Below, piece by piece: positions 17,853 through 18,172 of a stretch of 64,000 nt of DNA. Numbering within the stretch: the first letter of the stretch is position 1; each line of letters opens with the position of its first letter. Where the stretch lies: contig DUMO01000013.1 in assembly GCA_012839865.1 (NCBI GenBank), forward strand, positions 1 through 64,000, read 5' to 3'. The notes beneath the pieces were generated by a model. It was given only the letters and a program-made list of their open reading frames with translations. It made no database searches and was not told where the DNA came from. Source of the DNA: Clostridiaceae bacterium (GTDB lineage Bacteria; Bacillota; Clostridia; CAYPLH01; DUMO01). The position numbers and the translations under genes were made by a program.

Positions 17853-18172
17853 ATAACTGCGTGGGACAGGGGTGGGACAGGGGACGGTTCTGTGTCTTAC
17901 CACGCATCTGGCCGGGACAGGCAAGACAGGTGACGGTTCTGTGTCTTGCTACGCGATCGGACAAGGGACGGTTAATGTGAAAACAGATTCCCTCTCCGCT
18001 GATTGTTTTCATGCTTTCACCTGTGATGGCAAATGTCATGGATGTTCTATTAGTCGCTTCCTGGGACCGGGGAGACGGTTCTTCCGGTTCCCCTGTCATA
18101 TGAGACACAGAACCGTCCCCTGTCTTGGGTACGGTTCTTCCGGTCCCCACCGGAACCGTCCCCCTGGTCCCT
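17853..18172. mobile_element. MITE-like intergenic repeat element, full copy A. It has nested inverted repeats of GACAGGGGACGGTTCTGTGTCT around a conserved ~80 nt core (GGTTAATGTGAAAACAGATT...GGCAAATGTCATGGATGTTCT).
   Basis: The left repeat GGGACAGGGGACGGTTCTGTGTCTTA and right repeat GAGACACAGAACCGTCCCCTGTCTTGG are reverse complements. The core is about 85% identical to the element at 44520-44730. ORFs inside (TGDGSVS peptides) are just the repeat read in frame. Confidence 0.7.

Follow-up and report, generated by a model that had tools for sequence, protein, structure and literature searches.

Repetitive extragenic palindromic (REP) sequences of Escherichia coli and Pseudomonas, together with their BIME and REPIN arrangements and a REP-associated tyrosine transposase (RAYT), make up the system called the REPtron. 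RAYT and TIRYT genes are flanked by REPs or by terminal inverted repeats (TIRs) sharing the motif GGGGWSAS, and the TIR families form dimers and clusters (Di Nocera et al. 2013, PMC3733652); proteobacterial REP families are often species- or genus-specific (PMC3733652). Quentin et al. 2018 (PMC6006769) equate TIRYTs with TnpA_Y1 subclass 2.1, whose members are long and end in a helix-turn-helix (HTH), and report a lack of REP-like sequences beside their genes; the C-terminal HTH-like domain types given for this subclass are Bac_DnaA_C, HTH_23 or HTH_28 (PMC6006769). Group 1 RAYTs are present in Clostridia, with flanks that are just modestly repeated (Bertels et al., PMC5581495). Here we analysed a 64,000-nt stretch of a Clostridiaceae bacterium (contig DUMO01000013.1, positions 1 to 64,000; hereafter the window) and, within it, an intergenic repeat cluster between a GH20 and a GH3 gene, termed copy A (17853-18173), which an original prediction had assigned to a new family resembling miniature inverted-repeat transposable elements (MITEs). 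Our data indicate that copy A is very probably a BIME/REPIN-like cluster belonging to a clostridial REP family of RAYT/TIRYT type. The family is an undescribed member of the known REP/RAYT class of mobile DNA and does not represent a novel element type.

A covarying hairpin repeat in Clostridia

The repeat itself is real, as originally claimed. Allowing up to 3 mismatches, the 22-mer GACAGGGGACGGTTCTGTGTCT has 6 sites in the window (17876+, 17925+, 18103-, 44531+, 45091- and 54815-) and none in 100 shuffles, and the shorter GGGACGGTTC, with at most 1 mismatch, has 16 sites against 1.6 expected. A covariance model of the hairpin unit, R1, used on the window with a cut-off of E<1e-3, revealed 12 units, of which copy A holds five and copy B two; a pair is found at 33639-33761, another at 45054-45118 and a lone unit at 54810-54842. 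Every one of them falls in a gap between long open reading frames (ORFs), confirming that the copies are intergenic. Each unit is a DNA hairpin of ~30 nt with a variable, covarying stem of 6-8 bp and a loop of 11-13 nt; the loop, (G)GGGACGGTTCT(G), is near-invariant across units. One example has the stem AAGACA/TGTCTT closing the loop GGGGACGGTTCTG. Window stems come in two flavours, AGACA/TGTCT (type 1) and GGGACC../..GGTCCC (type 2).

The loop is exact in 198 of the 312 distinct units collected from the window and related loci, and stem pairs 5-7 alternate among A-T, G-C, T-A and C-G. In an alignment of 148 distinct units, with the caveat that stem pairs 1-4 were fixed by the 21-mer used to select the loci, 77% of the cells of the 8-bp stem are paired versus 61.8% in column shuffles, double-change cells number 207 versus 81, and the covariation score is 0.431 versus 0.172 (0/500 shuffles), slid registers giving 0.12-0.18. 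Loci selected by protein alone (described below) likewise show replacement of the whole stem, to CACA/TGTG and CAATCA/TGATTG, with the loop unchanged. Conservation does not extend to the positions 5' of the stem (consensus nnnnAAGACA... over the 148 units).

Among species-representative genomes, more than 115 contigs from at least four clostridial orders carry the exact 21-mer of the unit. Carriers include Lachnospiraceae, Blautia, Coprococcus, Oscillospiraceae, Acutalibacteraceae, Faecousia, Christensenellales, Peptostreptococcales, Mogibacterium, Lentihominibacter and biogas 'Clostridiaceae' metagenome-assembled genomes (MAGs); the 'Clostridiaceae bacterium' MAG of the window itself occurs in biogas-fermenter metagenomes. 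A search for phage carriage showed the 21-mer to be absent from IMG/VR contigs, and plasmids yielded no hit for the unit or its variant and no close transposase (all <40% identity). Outside the window, the units are arranged as 122 singlets, as doublets that are far more often '+ -' than '- +' (51 versus 3; median centre-to-centre spacing 42 nt) and as arrays of the form n(+) - centre - n(-).

A second repeat, TTTGTAGGGGCAGGCGTCCCGACTGCCCGC, a GTAG-tagged palindrome resembling classical REPs, is fused three times to the hairpin unit in an Acutalibacteraceae MAG (L042:89-258, 3300-3400, 7336-7440).

A Y1 transposase bracketed by the hairpin

When the ORFs of all hairpin-selected loci were clustered, two non-housekeeping families recurred, in 6 loci each, and the transposase-like one was followed. 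This gene of ~250 aa is present in 6 of the 115 8-kb blocks of hairpin-selected loci, where a unit lies 35-65 nt before its start and an inverted unit 4-20 nt past its stop. A '+ gene -' bracket surrounds the Y1_Tnp ORF in five hairpin-selected loci (L052, L068, L115, L091 and L028). For a reverse test, four family members were chosen solely for lying on long contigs, which gave five loci, L123-L127 (four distinct proteins, one being shared by L124 and L125). All five are bracketed '+ gene -' by units with the invariant loop and compensated stems (AGACA/TGTCT, CACA/TGTG and CAATCA/TGATTG); with three mis-called starts re-set, the distance from the upstream unit to MPRQARKKS is ~55-60 nt, and the downstream unit lies 6-12 nt past the stop. 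Together with Acetoanaerobium noterae (L131), and with L124 and L125 counted once, inverted hairpins flank the transposase in 10 of 10 independent loci examined, five of which were picked by protein alone.

The transposase matches Pfam PF01797 (Y1_Tnp) with E 1e-13 to 1e-15 and reaches 70.9-87.7 bits against the NCBIfam model NF047646 'REP-associated tyrosine transposase' (cutoff 80). The motifs NHxHxL and RYIHxNP are invariant in 16 transposase sequences, and a profile built from these 16 has E. coli TnpA_REP (4ER8) as its best PDB match (E 3.5e-6), with the HUH motif and the catalytic Tyr aligned, versus just E 0.5 for IS200-type TnpA chains; a single-sequence phmmer search against PDB gave no match. 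The proteins are 248-259 aa long, share a conserved GxSIRQ motif and possess a C-terminal extension. The C-terminal ~30 aa of the L068 protein weakly match Pfam HTH_38, HTH_28 and HTH_23, at E 3e-4 to 6e-4 and short of the gathering scores, and of the other two proteins scanned, that of L052 has a weak HTH_26 match and that of L091 no HTH match. The family comprises 7,557 clusters at E<=1e-10, with the source names 'transposase', 'RayT' and 'REP-associated tyrosine transposase'. Most contigs with family members are 1-3 kb long, as might be seen if repeats interrupted assembly.

In A. noterae, a homolog (35% identity) sits between perfect 25-nt inverted repeats, AATCATTAGGGACGGTTCTTTTTGA, and on the 2.63-Mb replicon the transposase is matched once and the dispersed unit at least 32 times. 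The motif in the flanking inverted repeats is GGGGACGG, or AGGGACGG in A. noterae. At eight loci (L123-L127, L068, L115 and L028), the 3' arm of the upstream hairpin runs into a TTGACA -35 box that is followed 17 nt on by TATAAT; this overlap suggests that the enzyme could act through the hairpin on the promoter of its own gene. The ends of RHS/YD-repeat toxin-like genes also harbour several units and, in one case, the transposase gene (L126:2900-9910; L027:~6300-6700; L034:~930-1040).

An extragenic hairpin, an inverted bracket around the gene, few genes with many repeats, a preferred doublet orientation and no target-site duplication (TSD) are the hallmarks of a REP/RAYT system. At 64 doublets, the distribution of TSD lengths equals that of a permuted control. 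As in the REPtron, the clostridial repeat is an extragenic palindromic hairpin found as singlets, inverted doublets and clusters; it lies mostly 3' of genes, it flanks in inversion a Y1/HUH transposase that matches the NCBIfam REP_Tyr_transpos model and PDB 4ER8, and in A. noterae a single transposase stands against the many dispersed repeats. The likeness to the TIRYT system, or 'TIRtron', lies in a RAYT-like protein with a C-terminal, possibly HTH-like extension, in flanking inverted repeats with a GGGG motif at their start (GGGGACGG versus the GGGGWSAS consensus), in a Sporomusa homolog (36% identity) that has the canonical GGGGTCAG, and in flanking repeats that are moderately abundant dispersed families forming dimers and clusters. 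Therefore, with a TnpA_REP-like gene bracketed by the units, a C-terminal extension, a motif close to GGGGWSAS and the canonical motif in Sporomusa, we file the family under REP/RAYT-TIRYT. By resemblance, the transposase would belong to subclass 2.1.

Two other origins in mobile DNA were considered. A classical MITE would be a deletion derivative of a DDE insertion sequence (IS), with one TIR per end and a conserved core, moved by cut-and-paste with a TSD. The inverted units and the internal core common to copies A and B would fit this, as would the excess of '+ -' over '- +' doublets, which is expected for the two ends of one element. However, the supposed TIR is a covarying hairpin that also occurs in tandem and as single copies; the original prediction had described inverted terminal repeats, one at each end, and what copy A contains is a self-complementary hairpin unit repeated 5-7 times. 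Moreover, the 64 doublets yield no TSD beyond the permuted control, so the duplications that the prediction had envisaged did not appear, ORF clustering shows no recurrent DDE-type or other transposase family besides the Y1 gene, and the core is in no other locus fetched or scanned. A classical MITE is therefore highly improbable. Bacterial MITEs such as RUP, Correia/NEMIS and ERIC are likewise small, non-coding and intergenic, with inverted ends, and can be co-transcribed into stably folded RNA; unlike the repeat described here, with its repeated hairpin ends, HUH/Y1 partner and lack of TSD, they derive from DDE insertion sequences and have TSDs. Of the 'new MITE-like family', the dispersed, non-coding, intergenic character and the inverted ends thus stand, but the repeat is neither specific to this genome nor a MITE defined by TIRs and TSD. 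Most plausibly, it derives from and depends on a transposase and is 'MITE-like' in this broad sense.

The second origin is a palindrome-associated transposable element (PATE) derived from IS200/IS605, in which the hairpins would correspond to the two IS ends, left and right, and the core to a remnant of the TnpB guide (omega) RNA. The flanking gene does have the Y1_Tnp fold, and hairpin ends without TSD fit single-strand 'peel and paste' transposition. However, the protein scores just 16-17 bits against the NCBIfam IS200 model (cutoff 55) and yet lies at the cutoff of the REP-transposase model; its best PDB relative is TnpA_REP, not the TnpA of IS608 or ISDra2. No tnpB was seen beside the transposase among the called genes of L123-L127, both ends are identical inverted copies rather than distinct left and right ends, and the core has no Rfam IS605-orfB match. 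We consider this origin very unlikely.

Several points weigh against a REP family of RAYT/TIRYT type. The units have no 5' GTAG/GTGG tag and no short (2-5 nt) loop; unlike in the REPtron, the conserved part is the loop of 11-13 nt and not the stem and foot, the stems are AT-rich and variable with the same loop across several orders, and the protein is ~85 aa longer, with its C-terminal extension. Unlike TIRs of the TIRYT system, the clostridial repeat is a covarying hairpin, and its motif is one position off the consensus, GGGGACGG being a 7/8 match to GGGGWSAS (G for A at position 7); the text of PMC3733652 and PMC6006769 gives no Firmicutes examples. A tblastn search found no transposase homolog within the 64-kb window. 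On an 860-kb Christensenellales contig, two transposase copies lie 7.5 kb apart (L052 at 477.6 kb and L110 at 485.1 kb) and are 100% identical over 211 aa, one being 5'-truncated and without the upstream hairpin; such paired copies are more IS-like than a domesticated single-copy RAYT. Relative to flanking genes, singlets show a modest bias to the sense strand (39:21), which leaves room for some RNA-level selection. An empty site for copy A was not found, as four other assemblies (L116-L119) are at least 99.8% identical, and homologs of the GH3 gene (65-70% identity) are not beside a GH20 gene, are not syntenic and have no units there. Mobility is something we infer, since neither an empty site nor an insertion polymorphism was found.

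Copy A, its core and the other units of the window

Copy A is a cluster ordered + + [split unit + core] + - (+) -, not one two-ended element, since R1 finds several units of both stem flavours there. It opens with a partial unit, GGGACAGGGGT (17860-17871), directly before a type 1 unit on the + strand at 17870-17902 (stem ..GGGACA/TGTCTTA.., loop GGGGACGGTTCTG; R1 40.4 bits, E 2e-10; exact 22-mer). A second + type 1 unit follows at 17919-17951 (stem GCAAGACA/TGTCTTGC, loop GGTGACGGTTCTG; R1 37.2 bits; 22-mer with 1 mismatch). The region 17954-18050 (+) begins with a split or degenerate unit, GGACAAGGGACGGTT, which reaches just 12 bits with R1 (17954-17985), and continues into the ~85-nt core, ending in the unit-like ATGGATGTTCT. 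Beyond the core lie a + type 2 unit at 18061-18093 (stem GGGACCGG/CCGGTTCCC, loop GGAGACGGTTCTT; R1 24.7 bits, E 2.5e-5) and an inverted type 1 unit at 18098-18130 (-; R1 38 bits; exact 22-mer), the latter pairing with unit 17870-17902 in the predicted single-stranded DNA (ssDNA) and RNA folds. The cluster closes with a compact type 2 doublet at 18117-18173, composed of a weak + unit (18117-18149; R1 12.4 bits) and a - unit (18141-18173; 22 bits, E 2e-4) that runs up to and including the GH20 stop codon (18171-18173). The predicted ssDNA fold of copy A, in which the outer type 1 units pair, has an energy of -73.6 kcal/mol (z -6.6 versus shuffles), and that of the - strand RNA -156 kcal/mol (z -7.2 versus shuffles).

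Strain L119, from another biogas metagenome, lacks 12 nt inside the cluster (18129-18140, GTACGGTTCTTC), and this indel is the sole difference within the 420 nt compared (window 17781-18200). Partial tandem units, consisting of the 5' arm and GGGG, extending up to GGGGACGGTTC and lacking the 3' arm, stand on the outer side of full units, both at window 17860-17871 and at L003, L010, L011, L064, L068, L072, L124 and L127. They are truncated at several different positions and thus do not support a single breakpoint or cleavage site.

Copy B (44525-44733) is preceded by an intrinsic-terminator-like hairpin (44471-44507). It begins with two + units, 44525-44557 and 44562-44594 (stem GAGTGTCA/TGACACTC; R1 41.1 and 27.3 bits), continues with the core at 44607-44690 and ends in a decayed inverted unit at ~44703-44733. 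That copies A and B share a core was borne out: 17966-18025 and 44607-44666 are 82% identical, and BLAST gives 83% over 84 nt (44607-44690). In both copies, the core is preceded by a half-unit (arm plus GGGACGGTT or GGATGGTT) and ends in the unit-like GGATGTTCT. However, it cannot be regarded as a conserved feature of the family, as originally proposed, because it was found in the two window copies alone; BLAST against all fetched loci returned solely the window and near-identical copies of the window locus. A core 20-mer gave 3 chance matches in metagenome contigs, with neither hairpins nor any wider similarity; this negative is weak, since the window's own copies were likewise missing from the matches. 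Between copies A and B, a 1-nt indel changes the reading frame without loss of conservation in the DNA beyond it, indicating that the core is non-coding. Gene callers annotate a 114-aa 'hypothetical protein' over copy A (17806-18150, -), which is the repeat translated and which, against 5.8 billion proteins, matches itself alone; the initial statement that no credible ORF is present therefore stands. Most simply, the core is a spacer that was carried along when a composite '+ + spacer -' element duplicated in this lineage. A variant junction, GGGGACGGTTAGCGTGAAAACC, occurs at L027:6411 and 6683, L041:5805 and L034:1040, in three unrelated Clostridia genomes. The window core starts (17966, 44607) with the related GGGACGGTTAATGTGAAAAC, the first 20 nt of the core being akin to GGGGACGGTTAGCGTGAAAACC, and the sequence past the junction differs from locus to locus.

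The remaining units of the window stand apart from the core. A type 2 '+ -' doublet with a 57-nt spacer (33639-33671+ and 33729-33761-; R1 29.3 and 23.6 bits) begins 23 nt past the stop of a histidine-kinase-like ORF (31784..33616). An abutting, REPIN-like '+ -' doublet (45054-45086+ and 45086-45118-; R1 27.2 and 38.1 bits) lies 10 nt from the stop of a - strand ORF (45128..45421), and its right arm is 96% complementary to 44527-44552. Within this ORF, which encodes a small secreted-looking protein, an ~18-nt repeat in three copies (45206-45278; start spacing 18 and 36 nt) specifies LGLDG-like peptide repeats. Finally, a single - unit (54810-54842; R1 39.6 bits; exact 22-mer) is located between the ORFs 53295..54536 (+) and 54843..55433 (+).

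Other assignments, namely a tRNA-like T-arm, an integron attC site, a CRISPR repeat, CsrA or ANTAR sites and a Tn3- or Tn7-like end, were rejected owing to misfits of consensus or spacing. Elsewhere in the window, a perfect 26-nt inverted repeat (6430-6455/6611-6636) encloses an Rfam TwoAYGGAY match (6455-6610, -, 50.6 bits) a short way upstream of a T-box leader (6028-6271, -); a cyclic di-GMP-II riboswitch aptamer (48791-48874, -, 71.3 bits) lies upstream of a - strand cluster (45458..48460); and a 65-nt direct repeat (49600-49664 and 50287-50351; 89% identity, 687 nt apart) is unrelated to the hairpin family.

Genomic context and the GH20-GH3 locus

Using crude ORF calls, on which all of these context statistics rest, we found 25% of units inside ORFs of at least 110 aa, though such ORFs cover 84% of the DNA. 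The gene end nearest to a unit is a 3' end in 99 cases and a 5' end in 43, and divergent intergenic regions are under-represented (16/142 units versus 76/440 in the background). This placement just 3' of genes and the depletion between divergent genes would also be expected if the units primarily acted at the RNA level, as mRNA stabilisers, terminators or protein-binding hairpins, or if the core were a small RNA gene. The sense bias of singlets, the very stable predicted fold of the copy A transcript, the resemblance of a conserved loop on a covarying stem to a protein-binding hairpin and the known effects of E. coli REPs on mRNA stability and translation point in the same direction. However, Rfam 15 gave nothing relevant at gathering thresholds in the window, nor at E up to 10 in copy A or in copy B with the doublet region, IS605-orfB included; the repeat is no known RNA. 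The units stand on both strands, mainly in symmetrical doublets, and no U-tract follows them. They bear no strand-specific wobble signature, because G-U and A-C departures are about equally common (26 versus 34 at pair 5; 25 versus 18 at pair 6). In the core, one pair of the GAAAACA/TGTTTTC stem is lost in copy B without compensation. Above all, a primary RNA-level role leaves the orientation-specific bracketing of the transposase unexplained. We therefore regard such a role as unlikely, less so than an origin as a MITE or from IS200/IS605, and an RNA-level function could still accompany the REP/RAYT system as a secondary role of the units.

At the locus of copy A, GH20 (18171..20843) and GH3 (16112..17785), both assigned by Pfam, are encoded on the - strand, the GH3 start lying 385 nt downstream of GH20; copy A is on the opposite strand from both. 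A terminator-like hairpin, CCAGGG-TATGGTTC-CCCTGG followed by T7, was detected by a terminator scan on the + strand only (17814-17847; hairpin 17819-17842), 30 nt upstream of the GH3 start codon. It was proposed to affect transcription of the GH genes, but a + strand hairpin cannot terminate GH20, as GH20 and GH3 are on the - strand. The region has a weak - strand R1 match (11.8 bits) and is possibly a decayed unit. A simple scan of the GH20-GH3 spacer revealed nothing like a sigma-70 promoter on the - strand, suggesting that GH3 is probably co-transcribed with GH20 through the cluster.

In E. coli, REPs stabilise upstream mRNA and, when less than ~15 nt from the stop codon, lower translation. 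By the predicted energies, the RNA of the cluster (~-156 kcal/mol, from the GH20 stop codon) could shield the upstream transcript or cut read-through into GH3. With its position in what is probably a GH20-GH3 operon and its contact with the stop codon of GH20, the cluster is a candidate modulator of GH20-GH3 mRNA stability or polarity.

By analogy with E. coli TnpA_REP and IS200/IS605 TnpA, the transposase of the REP/RAYT system described here would bind the folded hairpin on single-stranded DNA and would cut and rejoin it without target-site duplication. Units would thereby spread in trans into intergenic DNA, mostly just past stop codons, and the singlets, '+ -' doublets and composite clusters such as copies A and B would be non-autonomous derivatives of the transposase-flanking unit. 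The loop has stayed the same across at least four orders and among transposases whose identity falls from 100% to 35%. It is conceivable, though we hold it as a tentative and rather doubtful idea, that this is a pan-Clostridia REP system in which the transposase recognises the invariant loop GGGACGGTTCT, and not a GTAG foot 5' of the stem together with the stem. If so, TnpA_Y1 subclass 2.1/TIRYT enzymes, reported without REP-like partners, would have structured hairpin substrates, and the family would be the first REP/REPIN-type population described for gut and digester Firmicutes. On this reading, the tandem half-units and the split unit at the core could reflect cutting inside the loop, as by rolling-circle Rep proteins. 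Literature searches with the loop sequence on both strands returned chance primer matches alone, and those combining REP, RAYT or TIRYT with Clostridia or Lachnospiraceae returned no description of this family.

Clostridial MAGs abound in these hairpins, which spawn spurious 'hypothetical proteins' that an annotation model of the unit would clean up. The REP/RAYT literature searched rests almost wholly on Proteobacteria, and the clostridial family is a second, distant system. With its loop-specified hairpin and C-terminally extended, putatively HTH-bearing transposase, it could be used to test substrate recognition by Y1 enzymes, and it could also test whether such repeats are selfish, domesticated or regulatory.

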